Assembly (NCBI GenBank): GCA_003605065.1
Contig: QZJM01000070.1
Span: forward strand, 6,382 to 70,381
Length of the DNA: 64,000 nt
Reading direction: 5' to 3'
DNA from: Dethiobacter sp.
GTDB taxonomy: Bacteria > Bacillota > Dethiobacteria > DTU022 > UBA8154
Shown: one piece after another, positions 47,039 to 61,729 of the stretch
Position numbering within the stretch: the stretch's first letter is position 1
Layout of the letters: each line of letters starts with the position of its first letter
Notes under the pieces: model-generated
What the model saw: only the letters and a program-made list of their open reading frames with translations
The model's database searches: none
Told to the model about the DNA's origin: nothing
Program-made: the position numbers and the translations under genes

Positions 47039-48514
47039 GTGAAGTTCGACCTTTTTAAGGATATTATCGAACGAACTGGAGGTGATATTTATTTAGGTGT
47101 TGTAGGTCCGGTCAGAACGGGTAAATCAACCTTTATTAAAAAGTTTATGGAAATGCTTGTTCTCCCCAATATCGATAACCCTCACGTTTTGGAAAGAACC
47201 AAGGATGAATTGCCCCAGGGCAGTGCCGGTAAGACGATTATGACTACCGAACCGAAATTTATTCCGGATGAGGCTATAGAAATCAAGTTAGCAGAAAATA
47301 TCACGATGAGAGTAAGACTGGTAGACTGTGTAGGTTACACTGTCCCCGGAGCGGTGGGTTACGATGATGAGGGGAAACGTCGCATGGTTTCCACTCCCTG
47401 GTTTGACGAACCAATTCCGTTTGAAGAAGCTGCAGAGACTGGTACCCGCAAGGTTATACAGGACCATTCCACCATAGGAATCGTTGTTACTACTGATGGG
47501 ACAATTACGGATATCTCCAGAGAAAGTTATGTGAATGCTGAAAAAAGAGTTGTTAACGAGCTAAAAGAAATTGGAAAGCCTTTTGTCGTAGTCCTTAATT
47601 CCACCAAACCTTTTTCCCAGAGCACATTACAGCTCAAAGATGAGCTCTCAGAGAAATATGAAGTGCCGGTTGTTTCTCTAAACTGCCTGGAATTGAGTGA
47701 GAGCGATATCAACCTTTTATTTAAAGAAGTCCTCTACGAGTTTCCTGTCCAGGAGATCAGTATAAATTTACCCCCCTGGGTTGAGGTGCTGGGGCCTTCT
47801 CATCAGGTGGCCGTTGAATACACTGATGCTATCCGGGAACATCTCCTCAGCGTAGAACGTTTAAGGGACGTTGAGGCTGCCGTGGAGGAAATTAAGAAGT
47901 ATGATATTGTGGAAGAGGTTTTTATCAGAAACATTGAACTGGGCAGCGGTTATGCTCTGGTTGAAATTACTGCTCCGCAGGCTCTCTATGAAAAGATACT
48001 TTCCGATATTTGTGGAGTGGAAATTGAAGACCAGGCCGACCTTTTAAGAGTAATGAAAGATTTTGCTTATGCCAGGAAAGAATATGATAAGATCGCACAG
48101 GCCCTGGAAGACGTTAAAGAAAAAGGTTACGGCATTGTGCCTCCTTTCCTGGAGGAAATTTCCCTGGAGGAACCGGAAATCATACGACAGGGAAGCCGTT
48201 TTGGTGTCCGCCTCCAGGCCAGCGCTCCCTCTTTGCATATTGTTCGCGTAGATATTAAATCGGAATTTACTCCTATTGTGGGGTCGGAGAAACAAAGTGA
48301 AGAACTGGTAAATTACCTTGTAGACGAATTTGCTGAAAATCCGGAAAAACTATGGGAATCAAATTTATTTGGGAAATCACTATATGAACTGGTAAAAGAC
48401 GGTATTTCCGGAAAATTAAGCAATATGCCGCCCAATGCCCAGCAAAAGCTGAGGGAGACCCTGGAGAAAATCATCAATGAAGGCAGCGGAGGCTTGATTG
48501 TTATAATCCTATAG
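47039..48514 (+). CDS. spoIVA: Stage IV sporulation protein A (coat morphogenetic ATPase)
   Basis: RTGGDIYLGVVGPVRTGKSTFIKKF, GKTIMTTEPKF, DHSTIGIVVTTDG, C-terminal NEGSGGLIVIIL. Confidence 0.98.
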   Translation: MKFDLFKDIIERTGGDIYLGVVGPVRTGKSTFIKKFMEMLVLPNIDNPHVLERTKDELPQGSAGKTIMTTEPKFIPDEAIEIKLAENITMRVRLVDCVGYTVPGAVGYDDEGKRRMVSTPWFDEPIPFEEAAETGTRKVIQDHSTIGIVVTTDGTITDISRESYVNAEKRVVNELKEIGKPFVVVLNSTKPFSQSTLQLKDELSEKYEVPVVSLNCLELSESDINLLFKEVLYEFPVQEISINLPPWVEVLGPSHQVAVEYTDAIREHLLSVERLRDVEAAVEEIKKYDIVEEVFIRNIELGSGYALVEITAPQALYEKILSDICGVEIEDQADLLRVMKDFAYARKEYDKIAQALEDVKEKGYGIVPPFLEEISLEEPEIIRQGSRFGVRLQASAPSLHIVRVDIKSEFTPIVGSEKQSEELVNYLVDEFAENPEKLWESNLFGKSLYELVKDGISGKLSNMPPNAQQKLRETLEKIINEGSGGLIVIIL

Positions 48515-48559
48515 TATTCTGGGTGTGTATATTAATAATAAAATGGAACTTCAAGAAAG

Positions 48560-48588
48560 AAGCACTTCTTGCAGAGAGGTGCTTTTTT
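48560..48588 (+). terminator. Rho-independent terminator after spoIVA
   Basis: AAGCACTTCT-TGCAG-AGAGGTGCTT plus T run. Confidence 0.75.
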
Positions 48589-48697
48589 GTTTAAATTGTG
48601 TAAAAGAGGTTAATTAAAGGTGGCCGGCTCCTGATCTTTCATCCAAAATAAAAGGTGAAAATATTTCTATAATACTATAATTTTGAACAGCGGTTTC

Positions 48698-49624
48698 TTA
48701 CACCAAAACCTGTAAGGCCTGAGGAAGTATTTCAATTTCCACGGGAGCTTTCCCGGGTTGTTCGCCGTCAAGTTCCAGCAGAACGTCCTCAGGCGAAGTG
48801 ATGAATACTTTTTTAGCCCGCATAAATTCTACACCGCTGATGGATAGATGTGTCCCTTTATAAACCCGGGAAAGATTAGCCAAAAGTTTTATTTTACTCA
48901 TGTCATGTATAAAAAGAACATCAAGAAGAGCATCGTCCGGTTCGGCCAGGGGTGCTATTTTCATTCCACCGCCGAAATATTGACCATTAGCAAGGACTAA
49001 AGTAGTAATTTTACCCTGTCTTTTAATTTTTCCATCAATAACTGCCGATATTTCTTTGTTTTTATAAAGAAAAAGGGAAACGATCGTCCCATAAATAAAG
49101 GAAAGTCTCCCTCCCAGGATTTTGGAGGTTTTGTTCACACGGGCAGCCGTTTCTCCTCCCAGACCTATATCCGTGATATTGCAGAAATAGCGGCTGGTTT
49201 TTTCACCATTCGGAAGGACAAAGCGGGCCAATCCTAGATCGATAAGGCGACTTTTTCCTCTGATTAATGTTTCCACGGCCCGGTTAATTTCTCTTGGTAT
49301 GCCCAGAGTTCTGATAAAATCGCTGCCGGTACCAACAGAAATAATTCCCAGAACACTTCTATTTCTTTTATTATATTCAACTTCAAAAAAACCGTTTACT
49401 ACTTCATTTAAAGTACCGTCTCCACCTACACAGACCAGGGTTTTGTACTCATCATTTAAAGCTTTCTGTGTAATAACAGTTGCTTTCCCGGGCCCACCGG
49501 TCGCCCTAAAGTCGAAATGTAGCCCCTTTGCCTGCATAATATTTTTGATATAAGGCCAGCGCCGTCCTGTTTTTCCGTTTGCTGCGGCGGGGTTAACGAC
49601 TACCATCATTCTGTTATCATCCAT
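48698..49624 (-). CDS. Diacylglycerol/lipid kinase family protein (YegS/BmrU type)
   Basis: NPAAANG, GGDGTLNEVVNG, GTGSDF, NGQYFGGGM, LDGE. Confidence 0.9.
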   Translation of the reverse strand: MDDNRMMVVVNPAAANGKTGRRWPYIKNIMQAKGLHFDFRATGGPGKATVITQKALNDEYKTLVCVGGDGTLNEVVNGFFEVEYNKRNRSVLGIISVGTGSDFIRTLGIPREINRAVETLIRGKSRLIDLGLARFVLPNGEKTSRYFCNITDIGLGGETAARVNKTSKILGGRLSFIYGTIVSLFLYKNKEISAVIDGKIKRQGKITTLVLANGQYFGGGMKIAPLAEPDDALLDVLFIHDMSKIKLLANLSRVYKGTHLSISGVEFMRAKKVFITSPEDVLLELDGEQPGKAPVEIEILPQALQVLV

Positions 49625-49858
49625 GCTTATGTACTCCTGTATTATTTATAAACCTGTTTTCAGATTTGATATATTATTCGCCGGGGGTTTATTTATTCCT
49701 GCATTTCAAAAATTTTGAGATAGCTTTTAATGCTTTCATTAAACAGTAAAAGGAAATATAGTAAATATAATGCTTTTTCAGGAATATAATTCATGTTGTG
49801 ACAGCTGCGGATGGTTGATATAATTCAACCGAATAAAGAAAAGAAAGGGGGAAACCCG

Positions 49859-50887
49859 ATGCGATTCCTTGCCAATTTATTTGCCGGGAAAATCTGTATT
49901 GATCCTGGTACTGTTAATACTTCGGTTTTCATTAAAGGTAAAGGAATCGTGCTGCGCCAGCCTTCAGTAGTAGCATTGCAAAATAATGGTTCGGTATTGG
50001 CTGTTGGTGACGAAGCTAAAAAAATGATTGGGCGTACTCCCCAAAATATTACGATAGTCAGGCCTATTAAGAACGGTGTTGTGGCCAATTTTGATTTAAC
50101 CAGGATTATGTTTAAGCATTTTTTCTCTAAATTATTTTACCTGCATGCTGTTCCCATACCACAAGTCACCGTTCCGCTTTCCCTCGGCGTTACAGATATA
50201 GAAAGAAGAGCATTACAAGAAGCTATCAAACAGGCTGGAGCAAAAGAAGTAACTTTTATTGAAGCCCCCATGGCTGCTGCATTAGGTGCAAATTTACCAG
50301 TAGATGATTACAGGGGAGCTATGATCGTAAATCTAGGGGGAGGAACATCCGAAGTCGCCGTTATCTCACTGGGGGGCATTGTAACCAGCAGCTGCCTTCG
50401 TTTTGGTGGAGAAAATATGGATGAAACCATCATAAAGTATATCAGAAAAAAACATTACCTGGTGATCGGGGAAAGAACGGCAGAAGAAATTAAAATTACA
50501 ATTGGTTCGTCCTGCTGTAGGGCAGAGGAATATATGGATATCAGGGGCAAGGATCTGATCAGTAGATTACCCGGATCTCTTACCATAAGTTCCAGTGAAA
50601 TACAAAAGGTCCTGGCTGAGAACATTGCGGTTATTTTAAAAAACATAAGGGATACCCTGGAGAGAACGCCACTGGAATTAGCATTTGATATTATGAAAAC
50701 AGGCATCACCTTGACCGGCGGAGGGGCTCTTCTGAAAGGTTTTAGCAAAGCAGTGGCAGAGGCTACGGGGATGCCTGCACAACTGGCAGAAAAACCCCTG
50801 GACTGCAACGTTTTGGGTGCAGGGAAAATTGTTAAAGATCCGGAACTTTTTAAAAAAATAGCGGTTATTCCCCAGGAAGCCCCGTAA
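49859..50887 (+). CDS. mreB: MreB/Mbl family actin-like protein, orphan paralog with altered catalytic residues
   Basis: IDPGTVNT, PSVVA, MIGRTP, IEAPMAAALGA, VNLGGGTSEVAVISLGG, IGERTAEEIK, GITLTGGGALL; no mreC/mreD adjacent; ATG 49859 behind AAAGGGGG. Confidence 0.88.
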   Translation: MRFLANLFAGKICIDPGTVNTSVFIKGKGIVLRQPSVVALQNNGSVLAVGDEAKKMIGRTPQNITIVRPIKNGVVANFDLTRIMFKHFFSKLFYLHAVPIPQVTVPLSLGVTDIERRALQEAIKQAGAKEVTFIEAPMAAALGANLPVDDYRGAMIVNLGGGTSEVAVISLGGIVTSSCLRFGGENMDETIIKYIRKKHYLVIGERTAEEIKITIGSSCCRAEEYMDIRGKDLISRLPGSLTISSSEIQKVLAENIAVILKNIRDTLERTPLELAFDIMKTGITLTGGGALLKGFSKAVAEATGMPAQLAEKPLDCNVLGAGKIVKDPELFKKIAVIPQEAP

Positions 50888-51044
50888 ATCAGGTTTTTTG
50901 TAATTGTGAATTCTTTATTTAAGGAACAAAATAACAGGTTTAAACGTCTTATTTTATAGAACACAGGAAGAGGGGAAAAATTTTTACCGGCTGCCCGAAT
51001 TAATAATTAAAAACGTGCTATGAAAAGCCAAAGGAGGAAAAACC

Positions 51045-51719
51045 ATGAAAAGACTATTTATCGTTTTCCTGACAATTGCAACTGCTTTATTATTTGCCGG
51101 ATGCGGAACGGTTAACAAGCCCGGTGCCACGGAACCTCTGGAGTATGAAATTGTGGAAGAAACTGATTCTCTGCCTCAGGATATTAGCGGCATTATCGAG
51201 CACTTAAAAATCCACCGGGGATATTTTGTCTTTACCCCGCAAGACTATGATACGGGAAAAGATATTTACTTATTGATCTCTTCAGGAGAAAAACCTACCG
51301 GTGGTTATACTATCGAAGTGGATTCTTTAATTGTCCAGAACGGAGCCCTAAAAATAACAGTTGAAGAAAGGAAACCTGCCAAAGAAGACTTGGTGATTCA
51401 AGTCTTAACATATCCCTTTGTCGTAGTAAAAATTTTTGATTCTTATGAAAACTACAACATCATAAATAAAGAAAATATTAAGTTTGAAGAAATATCTTCT
51501 GAAAGTATCCCTTTGATTATAGAGAAAAGCGGAAAATATGTTGGCCAGATTGATAATAATTTTATAGAAATAGAAGTTGACGGCAAGGCGATGTCATTTA
51601 TGATATCACAGGAATTTTCCCCGTTTCTTGAACTTCTGAATACAGGAGACAATATTCTATTCTCTTATTATGAAAATGCCAACGGGCAGCTGGAAATTAC
51701 CAACCTGAATAATACATAA
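51045..51719 (+). CDS. Lipoprotein with PrcB C-terminal-like domain
   Basis: Lipobox LFAGC; SSGEKPTGGYTIEV...V.QVLTYPFVVVK PrcB-like motif; extra C-terminal beta-rich domain; AAGGAGG RBS. Confidence 0.8.
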   Translation: MKRLFIVFLTIATALLFAGCGTVNKPGATEPLEYEIVEETDSLPQDISGIIEHLKIHRGYFVFTPQDYDTGKDIYLLISSGEKPTGGYTIEVDSLIVQNGALKITVEERKPAKEDLVIQVLTYPFVVVKIFDSYENYNIINKENIKFEEISSESIPLIIEKSGKYVGQIDNNFIEIEVDGKAMSFMISQEFSPFLELLNTGDNILFSYYENANGQLEITNLNNT

Positions 51720-58720: not shown

Positions 58721-61700
58721 ATGAAGATTTCCCGTAGAAGTTTTTTATGGATTTCTGGTGCCGCCATTACCGGAAGTTTAGCTTTAAAGCTTGGTTGCGC
58801 ACCGAAGCAGCCACCTGCTGGTCCTGGCGAACCGCAGGTTGAAGCCGAAGATTTGAGAATTAAATATGCTCAAACATCAACTGCTATTTGTCCTATTTGC
58901 GGTGTAGGTTGTGGTGTTCTCGTTTACTCGGAAAACGGGAAAATAGTTGCGACGGAGGGCGATCCGGATCATCCCATCAATGAAGGCACACTTTGCAGCA
59001 AGGGATCGGCACTATTTAACATGTACTATACTTACGATGTAAAAGGAGAGGCCATCCCCAACCCGCAGCGTATGACCAAGGTTCTTTACCGTGCACCAAA
59101 AGCCAAAGATTGGGAAGTAAAAGACTGGAATTGGGCCCTGGAAACGATTGCCGACCGCGTTAAGAAGACCAGGGACGAGTACTTCCAGGAAAAAAACAAA
59201 GACGGTGTCACAGTTAACAGGTGTACTGCCCTGGCCTGGCTGGGAAGCGCCATGTGCAACAACGAAGAAAACTACCTCTTCCAAAAATTCGGCCGGGCTC
59301 TCGGTATTACAAACTTAGACCATTGTGCCCGTCTCTGACACTCCTCTACCGTTGCCGGTCTTGGCAACACATTCGGCAGGGGAGTAATGACCAACCACTG
59401 GATAGATTACAAGAATTCGGATGTCATCATGAATATCGGTGGCAATACCGCAGAGAACCACCCCATTTCCATGAAGTGGGTCCAGAAAGCCCGTGATGAA
59501 AGAGGGGCCAAATTAATAGTCGTAGACCCGCGTGTCACCAGGACGGCAGCTGTCGCAGACCTGTATGCACCGATTCGCCCGGGGACAAACATCGCTTTTC
59601 TTTCCGGTTTAATTAATTATGCCCTGGAAAAGGACCTGTATCATAAGGAATATGTCCTTAATTATACCAATGCAGCCAGCCTGGTTAACCCGGGATTTGG
59701 TTTTAATGACGGGCTTTTTACCGGATCGAAAGCTGCAGAACATGGCCAGTATACTTATGACAAGGCTACCTGGGCTTTCCAGACGGATGCTGAAGGAAAA
59801 ACTTTAAAGGACCCAACACTGCAGGACCCCAACTGTGTCTTCCAACTCATGAAAAAGCATTATTCCCGCTATGACGTGAAGACAGTTTCTGAAATTACCG
59901 GATGCCCGGAAGACAAATTCCGTGAAGTGGCCGATTTATTCTGCAGCACGGGTAAACCGGGTAAGGCAGGCAATATTTTATATGCCATGGGTATAACCCA
60001 GTTTACACATGGCTCACAGGGTGTCCGCAGCATTGCTTTACTACAGCTTTTGTTGGGCAACGTAGGTATCGCCGGCGGTGGGGTAAATGCCCAACGCGGC
60101 CAGTCCAACGTCCAGGGTGCCTGTGATATGGGGCAGCTTTACCACATCGTAACAGGCTACATGCCCATGCCTGCTGATGCACATAAAGACCTGGCCGGTT
60201 ACAATGCTACCACTCCCAAGGCGGGTTATTGGACCAACAGGCCCAAGTTCATGGTCAGCATGTTAAAGGCCTGGTATGGCGATAAGGCAACCGCTGATAA
60301 CGACTTTTGCTTTGATTACCTGCCCAAACTGGACAAGGACCGTTCTCACATGGCTATGTACAAGTACATGGCTCAGGGTGAAGTAAAAGGTATGTTCTGT
60401 TTTGCTGACAACCCCGCGGTGGGAGGCCCTACTGCCTTCCGGAAGCGTGAATATGCCAAGAAACTCGACTGGCTGGTGGTATCGGATATCTTTGAAAACG
60501 AAACGGCGGCTTTCTGGAAAGCGCCCGGTGAGAACCCGGAAGAAATTGACACGGAAGTATTTCTCTTACCTGCCGCCCTGCATTTCGAGAAAGAAGGTAC
60601 CATTACCAACAGCGGACGCTGGATCCAGTGGCGCTATAAAGCCCAGGAAGCGCTTGGAGATTCTAAATCCGACCTGTGGATTGTTGACAAGCTGTTTAAA
60701 GCAGTACGCAAAGCTTATGCAGCCGGTGGTAAGTTCCCCGCTCCCATCCTGGATATGGTTTGGGACTATGGTGATGATGCCGATGCTGTTAAAGTGGCCA
60801 TGGAGATTAACGGCTACGATGCATCAGGCGCACTGGTTGAAAACTTCACCAAACTGGCTGATGACGGCTCCACTTCCTGCGGCAGCTGGATCTACAGCGG
60901 CTTCTACAACAACGAAAGCGACCCGGCAAGCAAGCGCCGTGAAAAAGAAACCGAAGGAATCGGCAGTAATGCCAGGTGGTCTTTTGCCTGGCCGGTAAAC
61001 AGGCGTATTGTTTACAACCGCTGCTCTGCTGATCCTGAAGGCAAACCCTGGAATCCCGACCTGCCCGTCTTATGGTGGGATGGAAAAGAATGGAAGCGTA
61101 ACGACGTGCCTGACTTCAATGCCACTGTTCCGCCGGCAGATACCGCCAAAACGCCGTTTATTATGTCTCCAGAGCTGCAGGCCAGGTTATTTTCTTCGGC
61201 CATGGCCGAAGGCCCCTTCCCCGAGCATTACGAGCCGTGGGAGAGCCCGGTTGCTAATAAGATGGGTAAAGTACAATTCAACCCGGTCAGCAAGGTATGG
61301 TATCCGGGGGACAATGCCGAAGTGGGCAGTTCAGAATTTCCGTATATCGCTACTTCATATCGTCTTACGGAGCACTACCAGTCCGGGATTATGACCCGCA
61401 ATATGCCCTGGCTTAATGAGGCTATGCCGGAGATGTTTGTGGAAATCAGCCCGTCTCTGGCCGGAAAAATTGGGGTGAAAAGCGGCGACAAAGTAGTTGT
61501 GGAGAGCAAGCGTGCGCAGATCGAATGTAAAGTAGCTGTCACCCCGCGCTTAAAGTCTCTTAAAGTCAACGGTGAAGAGAAGGAAATTGTCGGTATGTTC
61601 TTCCACTGGGGCTTCATGGGCCTCTCCAAAGGTGCCTCAGCAAACGACCTGATTCCTTCCATCGGTGATGCGAACACAACCATACCGGAATTCAAGGCAT

Positions 61701-61729
61701 TCCTGTGCAATATAAGGAGGGTGGGATAA
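58721..61729 (+). CDS. fdnG: Selenocysteine-containing formate dehydrogenase alpha subunit (FdnG/FdhA type, Tat-exported, Mo/W-bisPGD), 1002 aa
   Basis: ORFs 58721-59338 and 59387-61729 are in frame, joined by TGA 59336-59338 in HCARL-U-HSSTVAGL...FGRGVMTN; SRRSFL Tat motif; CPICGVGC...C; RGQSNVQG; PEHYEP.ESP; RLTEHY. Confidence 0.95.
59351..59368 (+). promoter_or_regulatory. Bacterial SECIS element
   Basis: GTTGCC-GGTCTT-GGCAAC hairpin starting 12 nt after the in-frame TGA; resembles the E. coli fdhF SECIS apical stem-loop. Confidence 0.88.

Follow-up and report, generated by a model that had tools for sequence, protein, structure and literature searches.

Analysis of a 64-kb window (a 64,000-nucleotide stretch of Dethiobacter sp. 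contig QZJM01000070.1) revealed a gene encoding a natural paralog of the bacterial actin homolog MreB in which alanine replaces the catalytic glutamate (E136A) and asparagine replaces the phosphate-2 aspartate (D158N). By sequence and fold the paralog is a member of the MreB family, but it fails two catalytic hallmarks of that family and is distinct from the MreB encoded in the elongasome operon. The gene is functional, full-length and maintained by purifying selection. Comparison with published mutants suggests an MreB that binds ATP, barely hydrolyzes it and forms long-lived filaments, a reading to which we assign a probability of about 0.55. New here are the particular way in which the changes are combined, the selection that maintains them, and a charge reversal seen together with an apparent clade of basic, Glu-less Dethiobacteria paralogs.

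Identity of the paralog and its altered catalytic positions

The open reading frame translates into 342 amino acids with zero internal stops, and its product matched MreB profiles over its full length, in agreement with the full-length MreB paralog proposed in an earlier reading of the DNA made without database searches (hereafter the sequence-only reading). Matches included Pfam MreB_Mbl (PF06723; 395 bits, cutoff 27), end to end over residues 11–330, and the NCBIfam models PRK13927 (414 bits, cutoff 293) and TIGR00904 (385 bits, cutoff 365.75). Over residues 12–333 the protein shares ~57% identity with MreB of Geobacillus stearothermophilus (7ZPT), and because this alignment is one-to-one from residue 111 onward, A136 and N158 correspond to E136 and D158 of the Bacillus subtilis and Geobacillus MreB mutants discussed below. 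An AlphaFold2 model built from 144 diverse sequences had a predicted local distance difference test score (pLDDT) of 90.0 and a predicted template modeling score (pTM) of 0.87; a shallower alignment (58 sequences of low diversity) gave a pLDDT of 60.8 and a pTM of 0.47, which we read as an artifact of the multiple sequence alignment and did not use. In Foldseek comparisons the model matched 1JCF (template modeling scores 0.91/0.93, root-mean-square deviation 1.6 Å) and 4CZJ_A (0.88/0.96, 1.5 Å), and thus the predicted structure has the actin/Hsp70-type MreB fold, with subdomains IA, IB, IIA and IIB, and is superimposable on solved MreBs.

All of the substitutions listed in the sequence-only reading (IEAP, IVNLGGG, IDPGTVNT, RQPS and KNGVVAN) were present, codon by codon (Table 1). 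The catalytic motif E...T-X-[D/E] (E140, T167 and E169 of CcMreB) is therefore incomplete in the paralog, reading A136...T163-S164-E165. Among 118 close relatives, E136 was 100% and D158 99% conserved, and, when a collection of 5.8 billion proteins was searched, 118 of the top 120 homologs were canonical at all of these positions. Only one other cluster among the 120, P0002, which is 64% identical to the window protein, carried the whole substitution set (CVDPGTVNT, FQPS, QNGVVVNF, IEAP, VNVGGG and GGEY). The paralog has thus shed the carboxylates by which Mg2+ and the attacking water are held in place (E136A and D158N), plus several other conserved acidic residues.

The changes extend beyond the active site. 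Nine of the 29 conserved acidic positions were neutralized in both species (E34Q, D42N/S, D72N, D77N, E136A, D158N, E186N/Y, D296S/R and E302A), and just two losses were seen among 18 conserved basic positions. The paralog has an isoelectric point (pI) of 9.1 and carries a net charge close to +7 (+6.8), whereas 117 canonical relatives had a pI of 5.1–6.6 and a mean charge of −4.4. Relatives without the catalytic Glu (P0002, P0133, P0144, P0285, P0289 and P0319) were likewise basic, with a pI of 9.0–9.3 and a net charge of +6 to +7. The possibly amphipathic N-terminus noted in the sequence-only reading did not hold up: the hydrophobic moment of MRFLANLFAGK was 0.32, compared to 0.53–0.58 in canonical Dethiobacteria MreBs, from whose N-terminus (MRFLTKYFSRD in Dethiobacter alkaliphilus) it derives with both Arg residues lost.

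Canonical Dethiobacteria MreBs (for example P0004, P0009 and P0093 from D. alkaliphilus) are the closest sequences overall, with 54–60% identity and the same length, fold and N-terminal origin. They differ from the paralog in retaining all catalytic residues, in their acidic pI, in an amphipathic basic N-terminus and in their location in an mreBCD-pbp2-rodA operon, and within the class any two of them are on average ~82% identical. The nearest of them (59–60% identity) are primary, acidic MreBs encoded in maf-radC-mreB-mreC-mreD-pbp2-rodA operons of other Dethiobacteria, and the best canonical matches came from other samples.

Table 1. Positions in the 64-kb window of the paralog gene, its altered and retained motifs, its control elements and its neighbors.
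Feature	Position	Strand	Remarks
mreB paralog coding sequence, 342 aa, TAA stop included	49859..50887	+	Intact open reading frame; full-length Pfam and NCBIfam matches; AlphaFold2 model; dN/dS
Phosphate-1 loop D15-P-G-T-V-N-T21	49901..49921	+	Canonical DLGTANT; L16P and A19V; D15, G17, T18, N20 and T21 kept
Q34	49958..49960	+	Canonical E of REPS (REPS to RQPS); codon CAG, CAA in L001 and L084
N72-G-V-V-A-N77	50072..50089	+	Canonical DGVIAD; D72N and D77N; KDGVIAD to KNGVVAN
A136 in IEAP (residues 134–137)	50264..50266	+	Codon GCC, GCT in L001 and L084; replaces catalytic Glu (CcMreB E140; B. subtilis and G. stearothermophilus E136)
N158 in IVNLGGGT (residues 156–162, IVNLGGG)	50330..50332	+	Codon AAT; replaces phosphate-2 Asp
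T163-S164-E165	50345..50353	+	Kept T-X-[D/E] half of catalytic motif
E185-N186	50411..50416	+	Canonical D-E of GGDE; GGD to GGE, reads GGEN
Ribosome-binding site AAAGGGGG	49844..49851	+	7 nt before ATG 49859; direct reading of sequence
Predicted σ70-type promoter-like site	49796..49824	+	TTGTGA, 17-nt spacer, TATAAT, TG extended −10; 10/12 matches
spoIVA (stage IV sporulation protein A)	47039..48514	+	Upstream neighbor; Pfam SpoIVA domains
Diacylglycerol-kinase-like gene	48698..49624	-	Between spoIVA and paralog; window species only, absent from L001, L004 and L084
PrcB_C-domain lipoprotein gene	51045..51719	+	Downstream neighbor; in L088 directly after spoIVA with no mreB between

Purifying selection, distribution and relatives

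All 22 known members of the two clusters shared P16, V19, Q34, N72, N77, A136, N158 and E185, and thus homologs combining A136 with N158, which the sequence-only reading had proposed to look for, do exist. The P0002 cluster contains 20 of them, from many assemblies, with the residues kept in each, and at six of the eight key sites the shared derived residue is encoded by a different synonymous codon in each species. The ratio of nonsynonymous to synonymous substitution rates (dN/dS) was 0.149 at an unsaturated synonymous divergence (dS) of 0.166 (L001 versus L084) and 0.14–0.15 between species, showing purifying selection, for which the sequence-only reading had asked for a test; L084 was used for this comparison because L001 and L004 differ at only two nucleotides and are uninformative. 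Of the neighboring genes in the same genomes, gpsA had a similar ratio (0.165), and spoIVA and der were more tightly constrained (0.06). Decay and read error, two of the outcomes that the sequence-only reading had seen as fatal to it, were both excluded. The fast evolution of the gene compared to its neighbors and its patchy presence among relatives might raise the suspicion of a pseudogene in decay or of an artifact of assembly or sequencing, but we consider either very improbable and count both as already refuted: the 342-codon frame is intact and preceded by a ribosome-binding site and a conserved predicted promoter, the identical protein is encoded in three independent assemblies (NCBI GCA_020059905.1, Logan SRR22388160 and JGI contigs), at least 20 second-species variants all keep the key residues, dN/dS is ~0.15 with synonymous codon turnover at those sites, and the structure model is confident.

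The distribution of the paralog is narrow. The best named matches to the window SpoIVA belonged to Dethiobacteria bacterium (84% and 79%), Dethiobacteraceae (70%) and D. alkaliphilus (69%), which places the host in the class Dethiobacteria, in an uncultured, spore-forming lineage from anaerobic-digester metagenomes. The second species carrying the paralog is represented by 'Bacillota bacterium UBA9862' and by biogas-fermenter contigs (P0002-type). An exhaustive HMMER search of 1.84 billion representatives at 50% identity found no further clade member (scores fell from 724 bits to 460 bits), a scan of the GTDB species, each represented by a single genome, found UBA9862 as the only carrier, and a scan of JGI metagenomes for the pattern IEAP...GAN returned only more P0002-type contigs and an unrelated gut lineage.

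Beyond these two species, the paralog appears to have more distant relatives that also lack the catalytic Glu. These are P0144 (46% identical to the paralog), which has IEAP, D72N and D77N, and a set of Bacillota/Dethiobacteria paralogs of 337–340 amino acids in which LVENSI replaces LIEEPM (P0285–P0293, P0319, P0323 and P0346); together they are 46–52% identical to the paralog and are annotated only as rod shape-determining protein. They share with the paralog the lost catalytic Glu, D77N, an altered VVCVPS strand, the loss of P272 and a pI of ~9, and formed one clade with it in a neighbor-joining tree (bootstrap 100). This clade is provisional and defined here; its tree is distance-based (neighbor-joining only), and long-branch attraction may inflate the grouping, but common descent is independently supported by the derived residues held in common and by the basic pI. 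Like the paralog, the LVENSI-type genes and P0144 are stand-alone genes without mreCD, located in contexts that are unrelated to one another and differ from that of the paralog. Unlike the paralog, these relatives retain D158, E34 and L16, and D72 is likewise retained except in P0144 and P0323; in most of them Asn stands in place of the Glu and Ser in place of P137. The charge reversal and the existence of basic, Glu-less relatives suggest a distinct, undescribed functional class, and genome annotation labels all such paralogs 'rod shape-determining protein MreB'. It is a tentative proposal, which we would sooner doubt than assert, that the paralog is the extreme member of an unrecognized basic (pI ~9), stand-alone Dethiobacteria/Bacillota subfamily of MreBs that do not hydrolyze ATP and may form 'ATP-locked', energy-independent filaments.

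One LVENSI-type basic paralog (L085, 10001–11023) lies between genes for a PAS histidine kinase and a SleB-like cortex-lytic hydrolase (Hydrolase_2), with DUF421 and DUF4363 genes nearby. We take DUF421 and DUF4363 to be spore-associated families. This context raises the possibility of a link to sporulation or germination for the wider basic clade.

Individual changes of the same kind were also found in other MreBs. Members of a clade of otherwise canonical Clostridia-type MreBs (L007, L009, L010, L012, L013, L014, L019, L020 and L026) have MIVNMGGGT, with AAGDKQ in place of GGDE, suggesting that D158N alone is tolerated in what are presumably working MreBs. Six sequences (L036, L051, L056, L058, L060 and L068), from Verrucomicrobia or Planctomycetes–Verrucomicrobia–Chlamydiae-type bacteria and some unclassified or Actinomycetes metagenome-assembled genomes, have LIEQPM or LIKQPM, in which Gln for the catalytic Glu echoes Q137 of actin. 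In an MreB-like protein that is 43% identical to the paralog (L094, L098 and L099, the latter two from human gut metagenomes), IEAP occurs with the phosphate-2 Asp and other acidic residues kept (LIEAPI, FIIDIGGGTTE and AASSKM). Two unrelated, divergent MreB-like proteins, P0250 (604 amino acids; FMEAPL and MVVNIGGGT) and P0252 (352 amino acids; LMEAPL and MVLNAGSGI), combine Glu to Ala with Asp to Asn, and the double loss has therefore evolved more than once.

Nucleotide hydrolysis and filament stability

Mutants E136A and D158A of B. subtilis and G. stearothermophilus MreB were described in a pair of 2026 bioRxiv preprints (10.64898/2026.07.23.740262 and 10.64898/2026.07.24.740542). For the G. 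stearothermophilus protein, polymerization needed ATP binding; ATPase activity was 55-fold lower in E136A and 3-fold lower in D158A, and both mutants bound ATP and formed polymers as the wild type did. E136A trapped ATP, and its polymers lasted under limiting ATP, whereas G14E, G160R and G56R abolished nucleotide binding or polymerization. Filaments of B. subtilis E136A showed no intrafilament nucleotide exchange and withstood an ADP wash and, in vivo, carbonyl cyanide m-chlorophenylhydrazone (CCCP), and cells with E136A at native level were rod-shaped; B. subtilis D158A had reduced affinity for ATP and no detectable ADP binding (same preprints). A strong ATP-hydrolysis defect was also found for E134A of Spiroplasma citri MreB5 (cited in the G. 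stearothermophilus preprint).

The paralog resembles these laboratory mutants in the positions changed, their numbering and the Ala at 136. It differs in being natural, in combining both changes with L16P, A19V, E34Q, D72N, D77N, D185E and ~40 more at conserved sites, in having Asn rather than Ala at 158, and in its basic charge. Nucleotide-binding elements were retained, including D15, G17 (equivalent to G14 of B. subtilis), T18, N20, T21, G160–G162, T163, E165, IGERTAEEIK and TGGGALL. At the longitudinal interface, G58 (equivalent to G56) and G230 (equivalent to G231) were kept in both species, and L171 was kept in the window protein and is Phe in the P0002-type species; at the lateral interface, V114 showed a conservative change to Ile. 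These interface residues are indirect evidence that the paralog may polymerize with ATP, as MreBs do, into antiparallel double filaments on membranes.

The presence of A136 and N158 together with the retained equivalents of G14, G160 and G56 thus leads us to favor slow hydrolysis and long-lived filaments. The paralog would bind ATP and polymerize, its hydrolysis of ATP would, by analogy with the mutants, be very slow, and its filaments would turn over slowly whatever the ATP/ADP ratio in the cell. Anionic membranes would be favored by its positive charge, and the paralog would act as a static, membrane-avid scaffold beside the canonical, dynamic MreB encoded in the mreBCD operon. The sequence-only reading had proposed a catalytically silenced actin homolog with possibly static filaments or a possible capping or modulating role toward the main MreB/Mbl polymers. 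Silencing fits the lower hydrolysis of the laboratory mutants and the fact that catalytic Glu and phosphate-2 Asp are both replaced, but 'ATPase-dead' goes too far, since D158A cost only 3-fold; static filaments agree with the stabilized filaments of E136A, in which ATP binding and polymerization are retained, and for the paralog itself would follow by analogy.

Several observations weigh against this reading. The changes exceed the two laboratory mutations, and since D158A lowers ATP affinity and the combination of Asn158 with A136 differs from either mutant, the paralog may behave otherwise. The phosphate-1 hairpin carries L16P and A19V next to G17, and these changes could weaken the binding of nucleotide or eliminate it. 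Of 201 positions with at least 95% conservation among the 118 relatives, 51 were altered in both species, usually by the same replacement; they include V114I and the VVCVPS strand, which became V(T/V)VPLS, and given such changes neither homo- nor hetero-polymerization of the paralog can be assumed. The paralog is only 64% identical between the species, compared to 88% for SpoIVA and 80% for Der, and this faster evolution indicates relaxed or shifted constraint. Three relatives with SpoIVA 84–93% identical lack the gene beside spoIVA, and it looks dispensable in those lineages, although one of them, L090, is a 4-kb contig only. A MamK-like protein with a natural Glu-to-Ala change is reportedly active nonetheless.

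Some of these points would also fit a pseudo-MreB that is nucleotide-free or non-polymerizing and binds canonical MreB or elongasome partners, for example as their cap, adaptor or sequestering factor. Under such a mechanism L16P and A19V, together with D158N, would abolish nucleotide binding and leave a monomeric or oligomeric binder that forms no filament of its own. This possibility is consistent with the need of G. stearothermophilus MreB for ATP to polymerize, with the loss of both binding and polymerization in G14E and G160R, with the lowered ATP affinity and undetectable ADP binding of D158A, with the many altered surface and interface positions that are otherwise conserved, and with a reversal of charge (+6.8 versus −4.4) that would favor electrostatic hetero-association. 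We nevertheless regard it as unlikely, in view of the invariance of G17, G160–G162, T163, GGGALL and IGERTAEEIK under purifying selection (although these motifs are also structural), the retention of G58 and G230 in both species and of L171 in the window protein, and the pLDDT of 91–92 for the modeled phosphate-1 hairpin.

The opposite possibility, that the paralog is still an active, dynamic ATPase in which T163, E165, D15 or a partner compensates, making it an ordinary divergent isoform like Mbl or MreBH, seems quite unlikely to us. In its favor, the paralog retains the phosphate-1 Asp and the T-X-E part of the catalytic motif, D158A costs only 3-fold, D158N alone is fixed in a Clostridia MreB clade and E136Q alone in Verrucomicrobia-type MreBs, and rod shape persists in B. 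subtilis with native-level E136A. Yet E136A alone caused a 55-fold loss in G. stearothermophilus MreB, the corresponding change in S. citri MreB5 was strongly defective, and phosphate release by the Spiroplasma paralog MreB3 was unmeasurably slow; moreover, in the paralog the loss of Glu is combined with loss of D158, D72, D77 and E34, with no acidic residue gained nearby in either species.

MreB3 is a characterized natural low-ATPase MreB, and the paralog would work most like it and like the laboratory mutant E136A. The catalytic motif E...T-X-[D/E] occurs in 95.8% of 4832 non-Spiroplasma MreBs and is missing from 4.2%, and MreB3, in which the motif is absent and release of inorganic phosphate was unmeasurably slow, still formed double-stranded filaments (Takahashi et al. 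2022, PMC9597168). MreB3 (7E1C/7E1G) is likewise a natural paralog without the full motif that coexists with active paralogs; however, its changes are Glu to Asp, Thr to Lys and Glu to Ser or Thr, whereas the paralog has Glu to Ala, a kept T-X-E and a lost phosphate-2 Asp. The two proteins are ~33% identical and not specifically related, the paralog falling outside the MreB3 group, and the host of MreB3 is wall-less whereas that of the paralog is a spore-forming member of Dethiobacteria. A natural change in the catalytic motif is also found in Mad28, an actin-like protein of magnetotactic bacteria that has Ser in place of the phosphate-2 Asp and forms stable filaments; Mad28 and MamK-like proteins belong to other actin-like families, ~17% identical to the paralog, with magnetosome functions. 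The claim in the sequence-only reading that no natural example of such a combination was described was therefore too strong, because MreB3 and the 4.2% of MreBs without the motif were on record and because replacement of E136 by Ala, Asn or Gln and of D158 by Asn is fixed in several other lineages, including the apparently related Bacillota paralogs.

The role of ATP hydrolysis in MreB is debated, and the two 2026 preprints (10.64898/2026.07.23.740262 and 10.64898/2026.07.24.740542) argued that MreB requires it solely to disassemble and to sense the ATP/ADP ratio. An A136/N158 paralog under purifying selection offers an evolutionary test of this model, and selection on it beside a presumably normal MreB suggests that an MreB that does not hydrolyze ATP can be useful to the cell. 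On the tentative subfamily proposal made above, nature would have made and kept the hyperstable-filament mutant E136A that has only just been characterized in the laboratory, and these paralogs would form a permanent membrane scaffold that lasts through a collapse of ATP/ADP, for example when cells starve, sporulate or live syntrophically on little energy. The paralog is also a ready-made protein with which to compare static and dynamic bacterial actins. Its practical impact is modest, as its hosts are not in culture and Spiroplasma had already provided the principle that MreBs of low ATPase activity occur in nature.

Gene start, neighborhood and the question of sporulation

Translation most likely begins at ATG 49859, because AAAGGGGG lies 7 nt upstream, an aligned ATG is present in the ortholog (preceded there by AAAGGA) and the resulting N-terminus has the length seen in canonical MreBs; the good ribosome-binding site described in the sequence-only reading was thus confirmed. 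Upstream lies the sole promoter-like site found between 49600 and 51100, for which promoter function is predicted from its sequence. The block CATGTTGTnACA...GATGGTTGATATAATTCAACCGAA was nearly invariant between the window and L001, whereas the coding region had many synonymous changes. A longer frame from ATG 49811 ('MVDIIQPNK...', 16 additional codons), chosen by some gene callers for P0002, P0135 and P0124, was rejected because the conserved DNA block begins upstream of it, matches a σ70 extended −10 element and is without a ribosome-binding site. The apparent amino-acid conservation in 49811–49858 coincides with the promoter block, and that stretch is probably non-coding.

As the sequence-only reading had noted, no mreC or mreD is adjacent to the paralog, whose neighbors are the diacylglycerol-kinase-like gene, on the opposite strand, and the PrcB_C lipoprotein gene; no second mreB was found in the 64-kb window. 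Both species share a block of spoIIP, YIEGIA, DUF512, der, plsY, gpsA and spoIVA, followed by the paralog and then by speH, speE, ndk and fdh. The paralog directly adjoins spoIVA on the same strand in L001, L004 and L084; the order after spoIVA is mreB paralog, prcB_C and DUF2062 in L004 and, in the window, the inserted kinase-like gene, mreB paralog and prcB_C. Relatives differed at this position: L090 (SpoIVA 93% identical; a 4-kb contig only) has a Na/Ca exchanger gene and DUF2062 after spoIVA and no mreB there, L088 (86%) has prcB_C directly after spoIVA and then DUF2062, with no mreB, and L089 (84%) has unrelated pheA and aro genes, also without mreB. The region downstream of spoIVA (48515–51044 in the window) is a variable spot in these Dethiobacteria. 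The GC content of the gene (0.40–0.42, compared to 0.39–0.47 for its neighbors) gave no signal of horizontal transfer.

This location raised the question of whether the paralog is a sporulation-specific cytoskeletal partner of SpoIVA with a role in engulfment or assembly of the coat basement. Besides the same-strand adjacency, the region holds further sporulation genes (spoIIP and the YIEGIA family), a filament that outlasts a fall in ATP would suit a developmental structure, and the authors of the 2026 B. subtilis MreB preprint speculate that hydrolysis matters in development. We consider such a partnership improbable, however. Its only carriers are two close relatives (SpoIVA 88% identical), whose common ancestry would by itself lead one to expect the same gene order; the three relatives described above have other genes at the locus, and we therefore rejected synteny with spoIVA as functional evidence. 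In addition, the paralog has its own conserved, predicted σ70-type extended −10 promoter, with no match seen by eye to the σE, σK, σF or σG consensus, and the related basic paralogs are not beside spoIVA. A sporulation role for the paralog is possible but weakly supported.

Elsewhere in the window, the formate dehydrogenase alpha gene (58721–61729) is split into two open reading frames by an in-frame TGA (59336–59338) within DHCARL-U-HSSTVAG. The two frames are probably one selenoprotein gene, the TGA being at the classic FdhA-type selenocysteine position.

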